Source: Actinomycetota bacterium | Lineage (GTDB): Bacteria; Actinomycetota; Acidimicrobiia; Acidimicrobiales; CAIXPF01 | DNA length: 64,000 bases | Reading direction: 5' to 3' | Assembly: GCA_016870475.1 (NCBI GenBank) | Contig: VGBO01000002.1 | Location: 17,403-81,402 of the forward strand | Shown here: positions 32,662 to 42,121 of the stretch, piece by piece | Position numbering within the stretch: the stretch's first letter is position 1 | Layout of the letters: the number at the start of each line of letters is the position of its first letter | Position numbers and translations under genes: made by a program | Notes under the pieces: model-generated | Databases searched by the model: none | Told to the model about the DNA's origin: nothing | Seen by the model: the letters and a program-made list of their open reading frames with translations, nothing else

Positions 32662-33818
32662 GCATCTCCGGCAAGGCGGCGATCGTCGGCGTCTACGAGC
32701 ACCCCACACGCTGGGCGCCCGACGCGACGGAGTTCCAGATCATGGCCGAGTCGGCCCGCGGTGCCCTCGCGGACGCCGGCCTGACCCTCGCCGACGTCGA
32801 CGGCCTGTTCGCCGCGTCGATGACCATGGGCGCGATGGGCACCATCGAGCTCGCCGAGTACCTGAACCTCAAGCCCGACTACATCGACGGCACGAACGTC
32901 GGCGGGTCGAGCTTCGTCGCGCACGTCACGCACGCCGCAGCGGCGATCAACGCCGGGCTCTGCGAGGTCGCCCTCATTCTCTACGGGTCGACGGCGGCGT
33001 CGAGCTCGGTGGCGATCGGCACGGGGATGTCGCACGGCAACCGTGGCGCACACGAGTCCTTCACCTCGCCGTACGGGCTCACCACAGTCGGCAGCTACGC
33101 GCTCGTCGCCCGACTCCACATGGAGCGCTACGGCACCACGCCCGAACAGCTCGCCGAGATCGCGGTCACGATGCGGCGTCACGCCGGACTGAACCCCGCC
33201 GCGAAGATGCGGGCGCCGATCACCGTCGACGACGTGCTGTCGAGCCGCATGATCTCCGACCCGCTGCACCTGCTCGACTGCTGCATCATCAGTGACGGCG
33301 GCGGCGCGGTCGTGGTCACCTCCACCGAGCGGGCCCGCGACCTGCGGAAGCAGCCGGTGCTCGTGCTCGGGTGCGGCGAGGCCGTCGCGCACCCCGAGAT
33401 CGGTTCCCCCGACCTGCTCACCGTCGCCGGTGCGCAGTGCGGCGCACGGGCCTTCGCCATGGCGGGCGTCCGGCCGACGGACATCGACCTCGCGATGGTC
33501 TACGACAGCTTCACGATCACCGTGCTCGCCACGCTCGAGAACCTCGGGTTCTGCGGACGGGGCGAGGGTGGGGAGTTCGTGTCCGGCGGGCGCATCGGCC
33601 TCGGCGGCGAGCTCCCCGTCAACCCCGACGGCGGTGGCCTGTCGAACAACCACCCGGGGATGCGGGGGATCTTCCTCGTGATCGAGGCGGCCAAGCAGCT
33701 CCGCGGCGAGTGCGGCGACCGTCAGGTCGCCGGCGCGAAGCTCGCGGTCGCGCACGGTACCGGCGGAACGCTCGGCGTCTCCCACAGCGGTGCGACGCTC
33801 GTCCTGGGGGTGGAGTGA
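32658..33818 (+). CDS. SCP2/Ltp-type thiolase-fold protein lacking the nucleophilic Cys
   Basis: ATGA overlap with the upstream gene. 'GTNVGGSSFVAHV' sits where thiolases have C-A-(S/T)-G. 'VYDSF' sits where SCP2-thiolases have HDCF. 'NPDGGGLSNNHPGMRG' is present. Confidence 0.8.
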   Translation: MSISGKAAIVGVYEHPTRWAPDATEFQIMAESARGALADAGLTLADVDGLFAASMTMGAMGTIELAEYLNLKPDYIDGTNVGGSSFVAHVTHAAAAINAGLCEVALILYGSTAASSSVAIGTGMSHGNRGAHESFTSPYGLTTVGSYALVARLHMERYGTTPEQLAEIAVTMRRHAGLNPAAKMRAPITVDDVLSSRMISDPLHLLDCCIISDGGGAVVVTSTERARDLRKQPVLVLGCGEAVAHPEIGSPDLLTVAGAQCGARAFAMAGVRPTDIDLAMVYDSFTITVLATLENLGFCGRGEGGEFVSGGRIGLGGELPVNPDGGGLSNNHPGMRGIFLVIEAAKQLRGECGDRQVAGAKLAVAHGTGGTLGVSHSGATLVLGVE

Positions 33819-34237
33819 TGGCCGATCTGCAGCATCCGCTCGTGTACGCCTCGTGGGAGACCCGTGGCTACTGGGAGGGCGCCGGACGCGGCGAGCTCGT
33901 GCTCCAGCGTTGCGAAGCCTGCGGCACCGTGCAGCACAAGCCGCGGGCGATCTGCGCGACCTGCTTCGCGGACGCACCCCGGTCCTTCGTGGCGTCGGGC
34001 CGTGGCACCGTGCACACCTACACGGTCACCCACCAGAACCAGCTCCCGCCGTTCGCCGCCGCATGCCCCTACGTGATGGCCTACGTCGAGCTCGAGGAAG
34101 GCCCGCGCCTGCTCACCCACGTCGTGGGCTGCGACCCGACCGAGGTCCGCGTCGGCATGCCCGTCGTGGTGGACTTCCAGCCGCAGGAGCGCACCGACGG
34201 CGAGGTCTTCGGTGTGCCGAGGTTCCGCCCCGCATGA
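33818..34237 (+). CDS. DUF35 OB-fold/zinc-ribbon protein (thiolase partner)
   Basis: TGATG junction with the upstream gene. Zn ribbon 'CEACGTVQHKPRAICATC' and OB region 'VMAYVELEEGPRLLTHV'. Confidence 0.85.
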   Translation: MADLQHPLVYASWETRGYWEGAGRGELVLQRCEACGTVQHKPRAICATCFADAPRSFVASGRGTVHTYTVTHQNQLPPFAAACPYVMAYVELEEGPRLLTHVVGCDPTEVRVGMPVVVDFQPQERTDGEVFGVPRFRPA

Positions 34238-34860
34238 TCCTCGACCTGCACACGCACTCCATCCGCTCCGACGACGGTCGGGCGAAGGTGGAGAACTACT
34301 GCCAGTGGATCCGCAAGAAGGAGATCCCCCTCGACGGGTTCGTGCTCACCGAGCACCGCCAGTTCGACGACGACTCCGACTACCGGGGGCTCGAGGACCG
34401 CTACCAGCTCCTCATCCTCAAGGCGTCGGAGGTCGAGACCGACTACGGGCACGTGCTCGTGTTCGGGGTGAACGACGACCTCCGCCAGGAGTTCGACTTC
34501 GCCCGCATCGACAACCCGATCGGGGAGGTCCTCGAGGCGGCGAAGCGGTGCGGTGCGGTCGCCGCGCCGTGCCATCCGGGCCGCCCGAACGTGGGGCTGT
34601 TCGCCCACTACGAACGCAAGCCCGAGGTCGAGGGCATCGAGCTGATCGAGGTGTTCAACGGCGGCAGCCGACCCGGCGAGGACGACTGGTCCGTGCGCGA
34701 GGCGGACGCCCGTGGTTGGGCGGGGTTCGGGGGAAGCGACTCCCACATCGTGAGCCGCATCGGCTTCTGCGCGACCGAGTTCGACGACGACATCCGAGAC
34801 ATGGACGGTCTGCTGACCGCCCTGCGATCCAAGCGGTTCGTGCCCCGCACGTTCCGCTGA
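34234..34860 (+). CDS. PHP-domain metal-dependent phosphoesterase
   Basis: ATGA overlap with the upstream gene. 'MILDLHTHSIRSDDG', 'VLTEH', 'PCHPG' and 'GGSDSH'. Confidence 0.8.
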   Translation: MILDLHTHSIRSDDGRAKVENYCQWIRKKEIPLDGFVLTEHRQFDDDSDYRGLEDRYQLLILKASEVETDYGHVLVFGVNDDLRQEFDFARIDNPIGEVLEAAKRCGAVAAPCHPGRPNVGLFAHYERKPEVEGIELIEVFNGGSRPGEDDWSVREADARGWAGFGGSDSHIVSRIGFCATEFDDDIRDMDGLLTALRSKRFVPRTFR

Positions 34861-34879
34861 GAAGGAGCGAGGTTCCGCC

Positions 34880-35320
34880 ATGGGCGTGACCATCGAAGAA
34901 GCCCGCGCCGACTGGGTCGGCGTGGAGTTCGAGACGGCGCAGTACACGATCGAAGAGGCCGACCTGCTCGACTGGGCGACCTCGGTCGAGGAGGCCGACC
35001 CGCGCTTCGTCGACCCGACCCGGGACGACTTCCAGGCGCACCCGACCTACACGGCGAGCCTGACGAGCTTCCGCATGCTCCCCGACGGCTTCCCCGAACT
35101 CGGCAACGGGCGCGGGATCGACGGGGGCAAGGCGGTCACGAGCCTCGCACCGGTCCGCCCGGGCGACGTGCTCACCGGCCACAGCCTGATCGCCGACATC
35201 TACGCCAAGACCGGACGGTCGGGCACGATGATCTTCATCGTGCACCGGGTGAACTTCGAGAACCAGCGCGGCGAGCAGGTGTCGACCGTCGACTCGCGCA
35301 TCATCCGCAACTCGGACTGA
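34880..35320 (+). CDS. MaoC-N/FAS1-like hot-dog dehydratase subunit
   Basis: Track ORF with the typical 'PTYTASL...' and 'GTMIFIVHRVNFENQRGEQVSTVDSRII' hot-dog sheet. It is paired with the next gene. Confidence 0.75.
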   Translation: MGVTIEEARADWVGVEFETAQYTIEEADLLDWATSVEEADPRFVDPTRDDFQAHPTYTASLTSFRMLPDGFPELGNGRGIDGGKAVTSLAPVRPGDVLTGHSLIADIYAKTGRSGTMIFIVHRVNFENQRGEQVSTVDSRIIRNSD

Positions 35321-35332
35321 GAGGACGCTGCG

Positions 35333-35734
35333 ATGCGATTCGAGGACGTCGAACTCGGCGACGAACTGCCCGAGCGCCACCCGGATGTCTCCCTCGAGCG
35401 GGTGCGCACGTTCGTGCGCGCCGGCCACCACGACTTCCCGCGCTTCACCGACCACGAGGTCGCGAAGCGCGAGGGCCTGCCCGGCGCCGTCGTGCCCGGC
35501 ATCATGAGCCAGGCCCTCCTCTCCGCGATGATCCACGACTGGGCGCCCGGGTCGAGGATCCGCTCCCTCGACACCGTGTTCCGCACACCGATGATCGTGG
35601 GCACCAAGCCGACGTGCCGTGCCGCGGTGACCGACGTCGACGACGACGCCCGGACCGTCGAGCTCGACATCACGATGACCACCGAGGACGGCGTCACCTC
35701 CGTGCTCGGCACGGCCGTCGTCGAGCTCGACTGA
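35333..35734 (+). CDS. MaoC-like hot-dog (R)-hydratase subunit
   Basis: 'FVRAGHHDFPRFTDHEVAKREGLPGAVVPGIM' followed by a C-terminal hot-dog sheet. Confidence 0.75.
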   Translation: MRFEDVELGDELPERHPDVSLERVRTFVRAGHHDFPRFTDHEVAKREGLPGAVVPGIMSQALLSAMIHDWAPGSRIRSLDTVFRTPMIVGTKPTCRAAVTDVDDDARTVELDITMTTEDGVTSVLGTAVVELD

Positions 35735-35750
35735 CCGTCACCACGGCGGC

Positions 35751-37058
35751 TCAGAGGGCGGCAGCGGTCGCCCGTCGCTGGCTGAGCGCGAAGCTCATCG
35801 CCCCCGCACCCACGGCGAGCAAGCCGCCGAGGTAGAACGCCGGCGCGTACTGCTCGGAGACGTCGTGGATCCACCCGGCGAGCTGCGCGGCGACCGCGGC
35901 ACCGATCATGTGCAGGAAGATCACGAACCCGTACAGCGTGGGCACCGACCGGGGCCCGTAGCGCTGGGTGATCACCGCGATCGTCGCCGGGACGGTGGCG
36001 ATGTAGTCGAGTCCGAACACGATCGCGAAGCCCGACAGGAACGGTGCGGTCGACAGGAACGGCAGCAGCAACAGCGACATGCCCCGCGCCGCGTAATAGC
36101 CCGCGAGGAGCAGGCGCGGCGGGTAGCGGTCGCACAGCCACCCCGACGCCACGGTGCCGACGACGTTCATCGCCCCGATGAGGGACAGCAGGTTCGCCGC
36201 CTCGCCGGTGCTGTAACCGTGTGCCTCCGTGGCGTGGGGGATGAAGTGGTAGCCGATGAGCCCGATCGTCGTGAACCCGCACACGAAGAAGCTCGCGGAG
36301 AGCAGCCACAGATCGCCGGTGCGCATGGCGGTGCGCAACGGGACCGGGGGGATCTCCGAACCGGCCGGTGCCGCACCCGCTCCCCCGCCGAACGGCGTGA
36401 CCCCGGCCTCGCCCGGGCGGGAACGCAGGAGCAGCCAGGCGAGCGGGACGACCGCACCGAGCAGCAGCACGACTCCCCACAGGGCGACGCGCCAGCCGGA
36501 CGTGTCGGTCACCCAGGCGGCCGCCTTGATGAGCAGGAGCTGACCGGCGGACGCCGCACCGCCGAGGATCCCCGCCACGAGGCCGCGGTGCGACGAGAAC
36601 CAGGTCGTGGCGACCACCCCGCCGATCACGAGCGCCACCCCGCCCGTGCCGAGCCCGACGAGCACCCCCCAGGCGAGGTGGAACTGCCACAGCGACGTCA
36701 TCGTCGCGGTGGCCGCCGCCCCGGCCGCGCCGATGAGGAGGAACCCGACGACGGAGCGCCGCAACCCGAACCGGGTGAACGCCCAGCCCGACAGCGGACC
36801 GGACGCCGCCATGACGAGGAGGGACACGGCGAGCGGGGCGGAGACCGCCGAGCGGGACCAGCCGAACTCGTCCTCGAGCGGCCGGATGAACACCCCCGCC
36901 GCCGACCGGGCGCCCGAGGCGATGAGCACGACGAGGAAGACGACACCGACGACGACCCACGCGTAGTGGACACCGAACCGTTCGGCGAGGCGGGCCACGG
37001 TCGGCCGTGGCGTGTCGCCGGTCGGAGCGGACGACGGGAGGGGTTCGGCGCGGGGCAC
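35751..37058 (-). CDS. MFS transporter
   Basis: Only the 3' ~435 codons of the 1609-aa track ORF are protein-like, with 12 hydrophobic segments ('WVVVGVVFLVVLIASG', 'LLSASFFVCGFTTIGLIGYH', 'GFVIFLHMIGAAVAAQLAG'). The start is GTG 37058 or GTG 36998. Confidence 0.8.
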   Translation of the reverse strand: MPRAEPLPSSAPTGDTPRPTVARLAERFGVHYAWVVVGVVFLVVLIASGARSAAGVFIRPLEDEFGWSRSAVSAPLAVSLLVMAASGPLSGWAFTRFGLRRSVVGFLLIGAAGAAATATMTSLWQFHLAWGVLVGLGTGGVALVIGGVVATTWFSSHRGLVAGILGGAASAGQLLLIKAAAWVTDTSGWRVALWGVVLLLGAVVPLAWLLLRSRPGEAGVTPFGGGAGAAPAGSEIPPVPLRTAMRTGDLWLLSASFFVCGFTTIGLIGYHFIPHATEAHGYSTGEAANLLSLIGAMNVVGTVASGWLCDRYPPRLLLAGYYAARGMSLLLLPFLSTAPFLSGFAIVFGLDYIATVPATIAVITQRYGPRSVPTLYGFVIFLHMIGAAVAAQLAGWIHDVSEQYAPAFYLGGLLAVGAGAMSFALSQRRATAAAL

Positions 37059-37115: not shown

Positions 37116-40100
37116 GTGACCGACTTCTGTGACCGCATCGCCCGAGGGGTCGTCGTCTACGACGGTGCCACCGGTACCTACCTGCAGGGCGTCGGCCTCA
37201 CCGCGGACGACTTCGGCGGCCCCGCCTTCGAGGGATGCAACGAGATCCTCGTAGAGCGGCGACCCGACGTGATCCTGCAGATGCACCGCGACTACTTCGA
37301 CGCCGGCTGCGACGTCACCGAGACGGACAGCTTCGGTTCCTTCGCCGTGCCGCTCGGCGAGTACGGCATCGCGGACCGCGCCTACGAGCTGAACGCCCGG
37401 GCCGCCGAGCTCGCCCGTCGGGCTGCGGACGAGGCGATGGCCGCCGACCCGTCGCGGCCCCGCTTCGTCGCCGGGTCGATCGGGCCGGGCACGAAGTTCG
37501 CCTCCCTCGGCCAGATCACCTATGCGGATCTGCGCGACGCGTACGAGATCCAGAGCCGCGGCCTGCTCGACGGCGGATCGGACCTGCTGATCATCGAGAC
37601 CCAGTTCGACCTCCTCGGCATCAAGGCGGCGATGGCGGGGGCGCGCGTGGCCATGGCGGCGGTCGGCCGCGAGGTGCCGATCCAGTGCCAGATCACGATC
37701 GAGACGACCGGCCGGATGCTGCCGGGCACCGAGATCGGCGCGGCGCTCGCGGCGATCGACCCGTTGCGGCCCGATGTGTTCGGCATCAACTGCGCGACCG
37801 GTCCCGCCGAGATGGGCGAGCACCTCCGCTACCTGTCCCAGCACGCCCGCATGCCGATCTCCTGCCTGCCCAACGCCGGGTTCCCCTCCGTCGTCGACGG
37901 CCGCATGCACTACGACCTCGGCGACGACGAGCTCGCCGCCCACCTCGCCCGCTTCGTCGACGAGCTCGGCGTGCGGGTGATCGGCGGCTGCTGCGGGACG
38001 ACACCGGCGAGCATCCGCCGCATCGTCGAGGTGTGTCGCGACCGCACCCCGGCCGAACGGCACCCCGCGCACGAGGCCGGCGCGGCGTCGATCTACAGCT
38101 TCGTGCCGTTCGAGCAGGACAACTCCTTCCTCATCATCGGTGAGCGCACGAACGCGAACGGCTCGAAGAAGTTCCGGGACGCCATGCTCGAGGCCGACTG
38201 GGAGACCTGCACCCAGATGGCCCGTGACCAGGTGCGCGAGGGCGCCCACGTGCTCGACGTGTGCGTCGACTACGTGGGCCGCGACGGCACCGCCGACATG
38301 GACGAGATCGCCCGCCGGTTCTGCACGCAGTCCGCCGTGCCGATCGTGTTGGACTCCACCGAACCCGAGGTGATGGAGGCCGGCCTGCGTTGGATCGGTG
38401 GGCGGGCCATCCTCAACTCGGCGAACCTCGAGGACGGCGAGGGGCCGGGCTCGCGGCTCGACCGGGTGTTCAGCCTCGCCAAGACCTACGGCGCGGCGGT
38501 GATCTGCCTGCTCATCGACGAGGAGGGCCAGGCGCGCGACGTCGAGTGGAAGCTGCGGGTCGCCCATCGCCTCCACGACATCGCCACCGGGCAGTACGGC
38601 CTCGAAGCGTCCGACCTGATCTTCGACGCGTTGACGTTCCCGCTCTCCACCGGTGACGACGACCTGCGGGGCGACGCGCTGGCGACGATCGAGGCGATCC
38701 GACGCATCAAGGCGGAACTGCCCGGGGTCGCCACGACGCTCGGCGTGTCCAACGTCAGCTTCGGCCTGTCGCCTGCGGCCCGCCACGTCCTCAACAGCGT
38801 GTTCCTCGACGCGTGCGTCCGCGCCGGACTCGATTCGGCCATCGTGCACGCCGGCAAGATCGTCCCGCTCAGCCGCATCCCCGAGGAGCAGCGCCGGGTC
38901 TGCGACGACCTCGTGCACGACCGGCGCGACCCCGCCGCGGGGTACGACCCGCTGCAGCGGCTGCTCGAGGTGTTCGCCGGCGTCACCGTGCAGCGCGGTC
39001 CGACCGAGGACCGTTCTGGCTGGCCGGTCGATCGCCGGCTCACGCAGCGGATCATCGACGGCGACCGCGACGGTCTCGACACCGATCTCGACGAGGCGCT
39101 CGGCGCGGGCACCGACCCGCTCGACCTCGTGAACGGGCCGCTGCTCGGCGGCATGAAGGTCGTCGGCGACCTCTTCGCCACCGGTGAGATGCAGCTCCCC
39201 TTCGTGCTCCAGTCCGCCGAGACGATGAAGACGGCCGTCGCCCACCTCGAACCGCACATGGAACGGGTCGAGGGCGAGTCCACCGCGAAGGGCCGCATCG
39301 TGCTCGCCACGGTGAAGGGCGACGTGCACGACATCGGCAAGAACCTCGTCGACATCATCCTCACGAACAACGGCTACGAGGTGCACAACCTCGGGATCAA
39401 GGTCGGCATCGCCGAGATGGCGGACCGGGCGGTGGAGGTCGACGCGGACGCCATCGGCATGTCCGGTCTGCTCGTGAAGTCGACGCTGATCATGCGCGAC
39501 AACCTCGAGGAGTTGAACGCCCGGGGCCTCGCCCACATCCCGGTGCTGCTCGGCGGCGCGGCGCTCACCCGCAGCTACGTCGAACGGGACCTGCGCGAGG
39601 TCTACGACGGCCGCCTGTTCTACGGGAAGGACGCGTTCGAGGGTCTCCGGGTGATGGACCGGCTCGGCGAGATCGCCCGCACCGGCGTGGACGACCCCGA
39701 CTTCGGTCGCGTGCCCACCGGCCGTGCGCTGCCCGAGCGCTCCCGGCTCCGGGACCGCAGCGGCGACGCCCCGCCCACCGTGCGGCGCTCCCCCGCCGTC
39801 GTCGACCTCGAGGAGATCCCGCGTCCGCCGTTCCTCGGGAGCGCGGTCGTCAAGGGGATCCCGATCGACGACATCGCCGCCTACCTGAACGAGACGGCGC
39901 TGTTCCGCAACCAGTGGCAGTTCCGGCCCGAGGACGGCGAGGACGACGAGGCGTTCAAGGCGCGCGTCCGCCCGACCCTGCGCGACCAGCTCGCCACCTG
40001 CAAGGCCGAGGACCTCCTCGTCCCCCAGGTCGTCTACGGGTACTTCCCCGTGAACGCCGACGGCGAAGACCTCATCGTGTGGACCGACGAGACCCGCACC

Positions 40101-40610
40101 GCCGAACGCACCCGGTTCCGGTTCCCCCGCCAGGCCGAGGACCCCTTCCTGTGCATCTCGGACTTCCACCTCCCGGCGGACGGTGACCGGGTCGACTACG
40201 CGGCGTTCCACGTCGTGACCATGGGTGAGCGGATCTCGACCTCGTGTGCGGAGCTGTTCGCTGCGAACCGCTACCAGGAGTACCTGCTCCGCCACGGCAT
40301 CGGCGTGGAGATGGCCGAGGCGCTCGCCGAGTACTGGCACACGCGCATCCGCGCCGAATGGGGCATCGGCGACGAGGACGCGCCGAACCTCGCCGGGCTG
40401 TTCCGCCAGCAGTTCCGCGGCGGTCGCTACTCGTGGGGCTACCCGGCGTGCCCGGACCTCGAGGACAACGCCCGGGTGGCCGAACTGCTCGGGGCGGACC
40501 GCCTCGGCATCGTCGTCTCGGAGGAGACCGGTTGGCAGTACCAGCCGGAACAGACCACGAGCGCGATCCTCTGCCACCACCCCCGGGCCAAGTACTTCGT
40601 CGCCCGCTGA
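37116..40610 (+). CDS. metH: Cobalamin-dependent methionine synthase
   Basis: GTG at 37116. It has an Hcy-binding domain ('VVYDGATGTYL', 'IGGCCGTTP'), a pterin-binding domain ('IIGERTNANGSKKF'), the B12 motif 'GDVHDIGKN' and an AdoMet activation domain ('YSWGYPACPDLED'). Confidence 0.96.
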   Translation: MTDFCDRIARGVVVYDGATGTYLQGVGLTADDFGGPAFEGCNEILVERRPDVILQMHRDYFDAGCDVTETDSFGSFAVPLGEYGIADRAYELNARAAELARRAADEAMAADPSRPRFVAGSIGPGTKFASLGQITYADLRDAYEIQSRGLLDGGSDLLIIETQFDLLGIKAAMAGARVAMAAVGREVPIQCQITIETTGRMLPGTEIGAALAAIDPLRPDVFGINCATGPAEMGEHLRYLSQHARMPISCLPNAGFPSVVDGRMHYDLGDDELAAHLARFVDELGVRVIGGCCGTTPASIRRIVEVCRDRTPAERHPAHEAGAASIYSFVPFEQDNSFLIIGERTNANGSKKFRDAMLEADWETCTQMARDQVREGAHVLDVCVDYVGRDGTADMDEIARRFCTQSAVPIVLDSTEPEVMEAGLRWIGGRAILNSANLEDGEGPGSRLDRVFSLAKTYGAAVICLLIDEEGQARDVEWKLRVAHRLHDIATGQYGLEASDLIFDALTFPLSTGDDDLRGDALATIEAIRRIKAELPGVATTLGVSNVSFGLSPAARHVLNSVFLDACVRAGLDSAIVHAGKIVPLSRIPEEQRRVCDDLVHDRRDPAAGYDPLQRLLEVFAGVTVQRGPTEDRSGWPVDRRLTQRIIDGDRDGLDTDLDEALGAGTDPLDLVNGPLLGGMKVVGDLFATGEMQLPFVLQSAETMKTAVAHLEPHMERVEGESTAKGRIVLATVKGDVHDIGKNLVDIILTNNGYEVHNLGIKVGIAEMADRAVEVDADAIGMSGLLVKSTLIMRDNLEELNARGLAHIPVLLGGAALTRSYVERDLREVYDGRLFYGKDAFEGLRVMDRLGEIARTGVDDPDFGRVPTGRALPERSRLRDRSGDAPPTVRRSPAVVDLEEIPRPPFLGSAVVKGIPIDDIAAYLNETALFRNQWQFRPEDGEDDEAFKARVRPTLRDQLATCKAEDLLVPQVVYGYFPVNADGEDLIVWTDETRTAERTRFRFPRQAEDPFLCISDFHLPADGDRVDYAAFHVVTMGERISTSCAELFAANRYQEYLLRHGIGVEMAEALAEYWHTRIRAEWGIGDEDAPNLAGLFRQQFRGGRYSWGYPACPDLEDNARVAELLGADRLGIVVSEETGWQYQPEQTTSAILCHHPRAKYFVAR

Positions 40611-40645
40611 GCGGTATGCTCGGGTCGGCGAACAGGGGGTCCACC

Positions 40646-41260
40646 GTGGCGAACGATCGTGGCCTGCTGCCCAAGGCGCAGCGGGAGGAACTGAGCGAGG
40701 CGCTGCAGCGCAAACTCGAACGGTGGTACGGCAACGCCTACACCGACGACAACCTGTTCCTCACGATGGCGCGCCGGCCGGGGCTGCTCGACGCCACGTG
40801 GGGCTTCATCAAGTACATCTACGGCGGCGGGGCATCGGTCGAGGCGGAGCTGTTCGAGCTCATCCGCGTGAAGATGGCGTACAACAACCAGTGCGTACAT
40901 TGAAGCATGGCCCGTTCGAGCTCGGCCGTGAGCCGGGTCGCCGCCGACGACACCACCGACGCCGCCACCGTCTTCGAGGGTGACGTCGAGAAACTCCGGA
41001 ACTACGAGTCCTCCGATCTGCCGGACCGCACCAAGGTCGCGCTGCGGCTCGCCGACGCGCTGTCGATGGCGCCGCAGATGGTCGACGAGCACTTCTACGC
41101 GCAGCTCCGTGAGCACTTCGACGACGACCAGATCCTCGACCTCGGCATGTGCATGGCGTTCTTCACCGGCTGGCAGCGCTTCATCGAGGCGTTCGGGATC
41201 GTGCCCGACCGCTGGGAGGACGACGCGACGAAGCCGTGGGAGCCGGGCGGCGCCCGCTGA
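40646..41260 (+). CDS. Carboxymuconolactone decarboxylase/AhpD-like protein with in-frame TGA at 40901-40903 (candidate Sec; otherwise a nonsense pseudogene)
   Basis: Track ORFs 40244..40903 and 40907..41260 share one frame. The read-through product 'ELFELIRVKMAYNNQCVH[TGA]SMARSS...DLPDRTKVALRLADALS...ILDLGMCMAFFTGWQRF' is one CMD domain with E-x11-C-x-x-[TGA]. The start is GTG 40646 (AGGGGG upstream) or ATG 40616. Confidence 0.6.
40909..40939 (+). promoter_or_regulatory. Candidate bacterial SECIS-like hairpin downstream of the in-frame TGA
   Basis: Folded by hand. The lower stem is GGCCCG/CGGGUC (6 bp, one G-U) with a 5-nt 5' bulge UUCGA. The upper stem is GCUC/GAGC. The apical loop GGCCGU starts 21 nt after the UGA. 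Confidence 0.4.
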
Positions 41261-41269
41261 GCCCTGCCG

Positions 41270-42121
41270 TCAGGCGAGGGTCGCCCTGGCGACGAGGTCC
41301 ATCCCGAACGCGGTGAGGATCGCCAGGTACAACAGGCCGGTCGCGGCCATCACCGCGCTGTACTGCCGTTCCCGCAGCGCCGCCCAGGTGACGCCCAACA
41401 GGCCGATCGTCGTGACGACGCTCGTCGCCCAGAACCACCCGAGCAACCCGCCGTACCCGTCGTCGATCGCCCCAGAGAGCACGGCGAGCATGCCGGTCGG
41501 CAGCAGGAACACGACCAGTTCGGCCGGCCAGAGGGCCGCGGTCGCCACGACGAGCTGACGGAGCGGCCCGCGGTCGAGGCCGGGCTGCACCAGGTACCAA
41601 TGTCCGAGCAGCATCGCGTCGCTCACCGCGCCGAGGAACGCGGCACCGACGAGCATCCGGGCGAGCGAGACGGCCGGGTTCCCGCCAGCGTCGAGCGCCG
41701 CGGCGACGAGGCCCACCGTGCCGAGCACCGGGGCGACGAGGTCGAGCGCGGGCGGGAACTCCGAGACCGTTCGATCGAAGCGCTGCTCCGCACGATCGAT
41801 GCCCGTCATCGCCGCCACGCGCGCCGAACGGCGCTCGACCCGGTCCCGCTGGCCGGCGACACCGGCGCGGCGGCGCAGCACCGACACGGCGAGTGCGCCA
41901 GCGGTCGCCATCGCCACCGCCACCGCCGCGGCGTCGCGCACCGGCACGGTCCGGCCGGCGAAGCCGATCCACGCCGCACCGGCGGCCAGCAGGCCGAAGG
42001 TGACGCGCATCGTCCAGCCGTAGCCGAGACCGACCTCCCGGCGCCGGGTCGTCACCCACAGGAACAGCAGCCCACCGGTCGCCCATTGCAGCAGGACGGC
42101 CGCCGCGTCGAGGCGGATCAT
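41270..42121 (-). CDS. Polytopic membrane protein, function unknown
   Basis: The ATG at 42121 forms an ATGA overlap with the upstream peptidase stop. It has multiple hydrophobic helices ('LLQWATGGLLFLWV', 'LLGWFWATSVVTTIGLLGV'). Confidence 0.7.
   Translation of the reverse strand: MIRLDAAAVLLQWATGGLLFLWVTTRRREVGLGYGWTMRVTFGLLAAGAAWIGFAGRTVPVRDAAAVAVAMATAGALAVSVLRRRAGVAGQRDRVERRSARVAAMTGIDRAEQRFDRTVSEFPPALDLVAPVLGTVGLVAAALDAGGNPAVSLARMLVGAAFLGAVSDAMLLGHWYLVQPGLDRGPLRQLVVATAALWPAELVVFLLPTGMLAVLSGAIDDGYGGLLGWFWATSVVTTIGLLGVTWAALRERQYSAVMAATGLLYLAILTAFGMDLVARATLA

Follow-up and report, generated by a model that had tools for sequence, protein, structure and literature searches.

AhpD-like proteins carrying a CxxU motif (COG2128, later TIGR01926) were introduced as a new selenoprotein family from Sargasso Sea data by Zhang, Fomenko and Gladyshev in 2005 (PMC1088965), came fourth by abundance among the selenoprotein families of the GOS ocean metagenomes (PMC2398784) and are covered again in a 2026 review (PMC13188914), in accordance with the first-pass annotation of the DNA studied here, which had treated them as an established family. 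The gene described below, from a 64-kb stretch of Acidimicrobiia DNA (hereafter the window, meaning the whole stretch analysed), shares with these proteins the superfamily, the length, a putative Sec at the second position of the CxxC motif, widespread Cys homologues and a directly downstream SECIS-type hairpin with a G in its small apical loop. It differs in its motif, which is C-x-H-U, and in the Arg found in place of the His four residues past the second Cys, whilst the hosts of C-x-H-U genes belong mostly to soil and groundwater phyla, as opposed to the marine plankton of the described family. Judged by comparative sequence analysis, the in-frame TGA at 40901-40903 is very probably the selenocysteine codon of an AhpD-like redox protein, and the gene would add to a selenoprotein family known since 2005, within a divergent C-x-H-U subfamily.

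Translation of positions 40646-41260 of the forward strand gave a single frame of 204 codons plus stop (TGA 41258-41260), the sole interruption being the TGA at 40901-40903, directly 3' of ...AYNNQ-C83-V84-H85. Together with the alignment of homologues, this bore out the initial description of one frame broken only by an in-frame TGA at the second Cys of CxxC, and the E-x11-C spacing noted at the same time was also correct, with Glu71 lying 12 residues before Cys83 and invariant in the family. The upstream ORF had been given as 40244..40903, most of which proved to be a spurious stretch running into the 3' end of the preceding metH gene, which stops at 40610. We place the true start at GTG 40646 because the encoded N-terminus (VANDRGLLPK) matches that of homologues (MANDRGLLPK) and an AGGGGG lies upstream (Table 1). 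In three assemblies, gene callers report two products, of 85 aa and 117 aa, and the GC3 of the downstream ORF is 0.96 in a window of 72% GC. Of the window's 44 high-GC3 ORFs, 39 end in TGA, which excludes a reassigned genetic code, and the earlier remark that TGA serves as a normal stop here holds. A scan for TGA codons with coding-like GC3 on both sides returned six cases in the window, only that at 40901 lying within a domain. The other five same-frame TGA junctions were considered as further selenoprotein genes and rejected, as they separate ordinary adjacent genes.

Table 1. Features of the AhpD-like gene and its putative recoding element, in window coordinates.
Feature	Position	Strand	Basis
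Complete putative selenoprotein gene (AhpD-like, COG2128/TIGR01926-related oxidoreductase); GTG start, Sec = codon 86	40646..41260	+	Translation; colinear over full length with 20 Cys homologues
Shine-Dalgarno-like AGGGGG, 6 nt before GTG	40634..40639	+	Read off the sequence; function inferred
Glu71 codon, invariant acidic residue, E-x11-C spacing	40856..40858	+	No variation at this column (alignments A1, A5)
Redox motif Cys83-Val84-His85-Sec86 (TGC GTA CAT TGA), Sec predicted	40892..40903	+	C83 and C86 invariant among Cys homologues
UGA read as selenocysteine (inferred)	40901..40903	+	TGA conservation, purifying selection
C-terminal two-thirds of the protein, called as a separate 117-aa ORF from ATG 40907	40904..41257	+	Gene calls in three assemblies
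SECIS-like hairpin within the coding sequence	40917..40940	+	RNAalifold consensus, pair counts, minimum-energy fold

On contigs 99% identical to the window, metH, encoding a cobalamin-dependent methionine synthase of 1164 aa, was called at 37116-40610 (+), leaving a gap of 35 nt before the putative selenoprotein gene, and the two may be co-transcribed. This adjacency was confined to close relatives, namely the closest genome (L001) and 99%-identical strains. ORFs of 1581 and 1609 residues listed on both strands over metH are high-GC artefacts. Further upstream (33170-36700), gene calls on a 99%-identical contig (L083) comprise a thiolase C-terminal domain, ChsH2-like zinc-finger/OB proteins, two MaoC/hot-dog dehydratases and an MFS transporter, a gene content reminiscent of a cluster that degrades lipids or steroid side chains. 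On the other side, a convergent gene of 283 residues (41270-42121, minus strand) ends 10 nt past the stop of the AhpD-like gene; its product is hydrophobic, is conserved in L001 and had no Pfam match at E<=1e-5.

For protein profile searches the TGA column was filled with Cys. The window protein matched TIGR01926 ('peroxidase-related enzyme') over residues 8-187 of 204 (E = 7e-15), scoring 55.2 bits against a cut-off of 81.8, as well as NF053654 ('YciW-related (seleno)protein'; E = 1.6e-12, below the curated cut-off) and, weakly, the Pfam CMD family (PF02627; 18.3 bits against a cut-off of 23). NCBIfam cut-offs were reached by neither the window protein nor any of 20 family members. The NF053654 model (GroundWater_YciW) describes a related AhpD/YciW-type (seleno)protein and matches 19 of the 20 family members with E-values down to 1e-14, but the scores of approximately 45-48 bits fall far short of the 310-bit cut-off, and the two are therefore not the same equivalog. 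By these comparisons, the C-x-H-U proteins are homologous to the AhpD/CMD superfamily but constitute a separate, divergent subfamily without an NCBIfam model.

When the window protein and 20 full-length homologues were combined into a profile, this matched PDB entries over nearly its whole length, led by 2prr (3.6e-16) and followed by PA0269, 3c1l, 6k40 and Bmp8, and the CxxC motifs coincided in the displayed alignments with 2prr and 2ijc/PA0269. For P0002, a Cys homologue with 69% identity to the window protein, AlphaFold2 gave an all-alpha model (pLDDT 84.7), whose top Foldseek matches were 6k40, 2prr and 3c1l at target-normalised TM-scores of 0.73-0.79. By the profile matches and this homologue model, the window protein has an AhpD fold. 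The all-alpha AhpD fold is thus shared with 2prr (Ralstonia, 'AhpD core, peroxidase-related'), 6k40 (D. radiodurans AhpD) and 3c1l (Mesorhizobium mlr4105), whereas sequence identity to these proteins is only about 21% and they use Cys instead of Sec. The His of the CxxCxxxH signature is absent, the window protein reading C-V-H-U-S-M-A-R and the family having Arg, Thr or Gln at this position. Whilst 2prr (CLYCVVAH) and 2ijc/PA0269 (CAYCVNMH) carry this His, the C-x-H-U family instead has a nearly invariant His inside the motif. The tetrabromopyrrole debrominase Bmp8 (6ohi, 6ohj) also has an AhpD-like fold (profile E = 1.7e-9, Foldseek E = 1e-4) but is distant and Cys-using; it illustrates that such a fold can host chemistry beyond peroxide reduction.

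To place the TGA in a broader context, one genome per GTDB species was scanned, yielding 190 relatives, and the TGA column was read in the best 80 of these. TGA occupied the column in 74 of the 80 species genomes and TGC in the remaining 6, whilst Cys was present in 20/20 full-length protein homologues; the comparison of homologues at this column that the first-pass annotation had proposed therefore came out in favour of its reading. In the family alignment, E71, C83 and C86 (the TGA column) were invariant and H85 nearly so. Hosts of the TGA form were widely distributed, spanning Methylomirabilota/Rokubacteria, Acidimicrobiia, Chloroflexota, Entotheonella, a Desulfobacteraceae MAG, Binatia, Dormibacterota, Dehalococcoidia and others, and those of the TGC form were five Pseudonocardia and one Acidimicrobiales genome. 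One TGA-form locus (L055, DATIWG010000088) is attributed to an archaeal 'Nitrosotalea sp.' MAG; the contig has 70% GC with a bacterial TGA-form gene and was probably mis-binned.

The same TGA was recovered from three independent metagenome assemblies (JGI 3300017788, ENA ERZ27247375 and Logan SRR6481370), all of which contain the exact 117-residue downstream ORF on DNA 99% identical to the window and differ from it within the gene by one synonymous base. Taken with the 74 genomes, these assemblies indicate that the TGA is neither a chance occurrence nor an assembly error, and its presence in 74/80 species from several phyla implies that it is ancestral, not recent. In comparison with the orthologue in L001, an uncultured Acidimicrobiaceae MAG and the closest genome (protein 95% identical), dN/dS was 0.016 for the segment 5' of the TGA and 0.15 for the segment 3' of it, at a dS of 0.25-0.33. 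The low downstream ratio implies that this part of the gene has been translated in frame throughout the divergence of these lineages.

Shortly after the TGA, the coding sequence contains a SECIS-like hairpin, which is also the minimum-energy fold of 40915-40942. Its core comprises 7 bp (40920-40926/40932-40938), to which the fold of the window alone adds two more pairs (40917-40918/40939-40940) beyond a one-base bulge, and the apical loop C-G-U-G-A at 40927-40931 places G28 U29 (counting the U of UGA as 1) at 40928-40929. The 60 nt from the UGA onward aligned without gaps in all 75 TGA forms and separated into two groups. As the two clades place the hairpin approximately 4 nt apart, groups A and B were analysed separately rather than as one 75-sequence structural alignment. 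For group A (the window and 38 others), RNAalifold returned a 7-bp stem at columns 20-26/32-38 with the loop C-G-U-G-A, all 7 pairs being kept in 39/39 sequences. For group B (34 sequences), the stem occupied columns 17-23/27-33 with a G-U-U loop (G24 U25), and all cells were paired. The hairpin was accordingly intact (7/7 pairs) in all 73 TGA forms aligned across groups A and B.

Compensatory changes were detected at 4 of the 7 pairs in group B and at 2-3 pairs in group A. In one example, three group B sequences replace A21-U29 with G-C, through a synonymous third-position change combined with an amino-acid-changing second-position change. Neither the covariation score nor the fraction of paired cells was equalled in any of 500 shuffles in either group, and sliding the 3' partners by 1-3 columns as a control lowered pairing to 13-59%. 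When only codons for the consensus amino acid were counted, third-position entropy was 0.20-0.23 bits within the hairpin compared to 0.74-0.86 in the flanks (50 upstream codons and the codons past the hairpin) and approximately 1.0 in the spacer. The hairpin codons are thereby subject to a local RNA-level constraint added to that on the protein. Folding energy after the UGA was no better than that of dinucleotide shuffles (z = +1.55, -0.13 and -1.08); thermodynamics is uninformative at 72% GC, and support for the structure is therefore comparative only.

In the two closest Cys forms the hairpin has decayed to 5/7 and 4/7 pairs, one of them without the loop GU, as would be expected of an element that has ceased to be needed. 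The two closest full-length Cys forms (L087 and L088, from JGI 3300012469, at 66-69% identity) combine a retained SLARS peptide with a partly decayed hairpin, which suggests that they are recent Sec-to-Cys conversions inside the Sec clade. Across the loci L001-L080 (alignments A3 and A4), the two hairpin registers were each associated with a peptide of their own, G28 U29 with SSSAVSRG and G24 U25 with SASLVRKG, and the hairpin has shifted between the clades along with its encoded peptide. Like the E. coli fdhF SECIS, these elements are coding-sequence stem-loops that start 11-16 nt past the UGA and form a hairpin of 17-24 nt. The fdhF hairpin, as read from the gene, spans 17 nt (nt 15-31, loop G23 U24), and that of group B likewise spans 17 nt (nt 17-33). 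A small apical loop with GU is present in both systems and the window's version has a one-base bulge, whereas there is no sequence similarity between them and the window loop has 5 nt (CGUGA) as opposed to the GGUC of fdhF.

Several features of the locus would be compatible with a recently inactivated pseudogene (TGC/TGT to TGA), or with a gene stranded after loss of the Sec machinery, in which translation ends after His85: the TGA is one base away from TGC/TGT, it is the usual stop in the window and Sec machinery was not found in the window. We regard this explanation as very unlikely, given that the TGA is the same in 74 of the best 80 of 190 species, from several phyla, that the part of the gene downstream of it is under purifying selection (dN/dS 0.15 at a dS of 0.25) and that the hairpin is fully intact, whereas it has decayed in the Cys forms. 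Its recurrence across phyla and the downstream selection effectively exclude the nonsense mutation that the first-pass annotation had kept as its alternative. Still less probable is a read-through of the UGA independent of Sec, whether by near-cognate insertion of Trp or Cys or through a locally reassigned code. Four database translations (P0019, P0020, P0023 and P0054) do have Gly at the TGA column (CVH-G-S), probably a database artefact of a TGA=Gly table applied by the source. Against such decoding, TGA terminates 39/44 ORFs of the window, the TGA column pairs specifically with Cys and a conserved SECIS-type hairpin, with GU in its loop, follows at the proper distance.

The chance that the locus is a split gene, in which translation terminates and restarts at ATG 40907 to yield polypeptides of 85 aa and 117 aa that assemble non-covalently, we consider the slightest of the three. 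It would account for the ATG two codons past the TGA in the window and for the two ORFs reported by gene callers, but most TGA-form homologues have CTC or CTG (Leu) at the position of this ATG and their next start is a GTG in the hairpin loop. The restart would have to proceed without a Shine-Dalgarno sequence, and splitting would eliminate the second redox residue, an invariant position among the uninterrupted Cys homologues. The interpretation as a C-V-H-U selenoprotein of the AhpD/CMD type, put forward in the first-pass annotation, is in turn strongly supported by the pairing of Sec with Cys, the SECIS-like hairpin, the purifying selection downstream and the AhpD fold.

Under this selenoprotein interpretation, 40646-41260 would encode an AhpD-like thiol/selenol oxidoreductase of approximately 204 residues with the motif C83-V-H-U86. 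The hairpin at 40917-40940, starting 13-16 nt past the UGA and with GU in its apical loop, would act as a bacterial SECIS and may recruit SelB-GTP-Sec-tRNA(Sec) to the ribosome, such that UGA 40901 would be decoded as Sec without termination. The product would then be expected to cycle between a selenol/thiol and a selenenylsulfide (Cys83/Sec86), as does the CxxC of AhpD-type proteins, with Glu71 and the in-motif His85 as likely proton-relay residues. In M. tuberculosis AhpD, the second Cys of CxxC is the attacking nucleophile, which fits a Sec at residue 86. Either a peroxiredoxin-type partner or a hydroperoxide is the probable substrate.

Searches with the E. coli K-12 proteins (tblastn) gave no match to selA, selB or selD within the 64-kb window or the regions flanking 80 homologous loci. 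Over the same scope, ARAGORN predicted no tRNA-Sec, with no tRNA gene at all in the window, and no Rfam family exceeded its threshold in the window or the locus flanks. Across the window and the flanks of the 80 loci, the Sec machinery is therefore not linked to the AhpD-like gene. Two publications lend indirect support to Sec machinery in this genome: selA, selB, selC and selD are reported to be universal in Actinomarina, another Acidimicrobiia lineage (bioRxiv 10.64898/2026.04.03.716425), and a Methylomirabilota MAG with 63 selenoprotein genes has been reported (PMC13188914). No conserved neighbour was common to the 80 loci, at which MBL-fold hydrolase, CoA-transferase, DUF2254 and transporter genes vary. 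Linkage to ahpC or a peroxiredoxin gene, by which an AhpD of the M. tuberculosis type might be recognised, was likewise not found across the 80 loci, and the window family differs in this respect from that AhpD, an AhpC reductase.

A more far-reaching view, which we hold only tentatively and consider rather unlikely, is that the C-x-H-U proteins form a distinct, overwhelmingly Sec-containing AhpD-like clade of soil and groundwater phyla, in which the catalytic His has moved into the motif and the substrate or chemistry is possibly not that of AhpD. Were the clade distinct in this way, a reductive reaction like that of Bmp8 would be possible, or, in this lineage, a function connected with the neighbouring methionine synthase gene.

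Recognition of the selenoprotein would add one to a high-GC Acidimicrobiia genome and would imply selenium use by the organism. The locus also offers a clean example of a coding-region SECIS, combining covariation, synonymous constraint, two registers and decay after Sec-to-Cys conversion, and could be useful for training selenoprotein predictors. Knowledge of Sec biology is otherwise unchanged, and the main value lies in annotation. In the protein database, we found 20 full-length C-x-H-C homologues, together with 17 fragments that end exactly at C-V-H and approximately 60 that begin just downstream, such that about 77 of 109 database matches were fragments. One cluster of C-terminal fragments alone contains 102 member sequences from NCBI and ENA. 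The C-x-H-U family is thus systematically mis-annotated as fragments, which NCBI and other pipelines produce because no NCBIfam cut-off is reached. In P0057, P0049, P0061 and approximately 50 other proteins, the C-terminal fragment was called from a GTG in the SECIS loop (VSRGATED...; columns 28-30 in L003-L028), and the cluster of 102 sequences is of this kind. In two further entries, the N-terminal fragment of the family is fused to an unrelated N-terminus (PF02119 in P0055, PF19291 in P0070), and these are likely chimeric contigs or mis-called starts.
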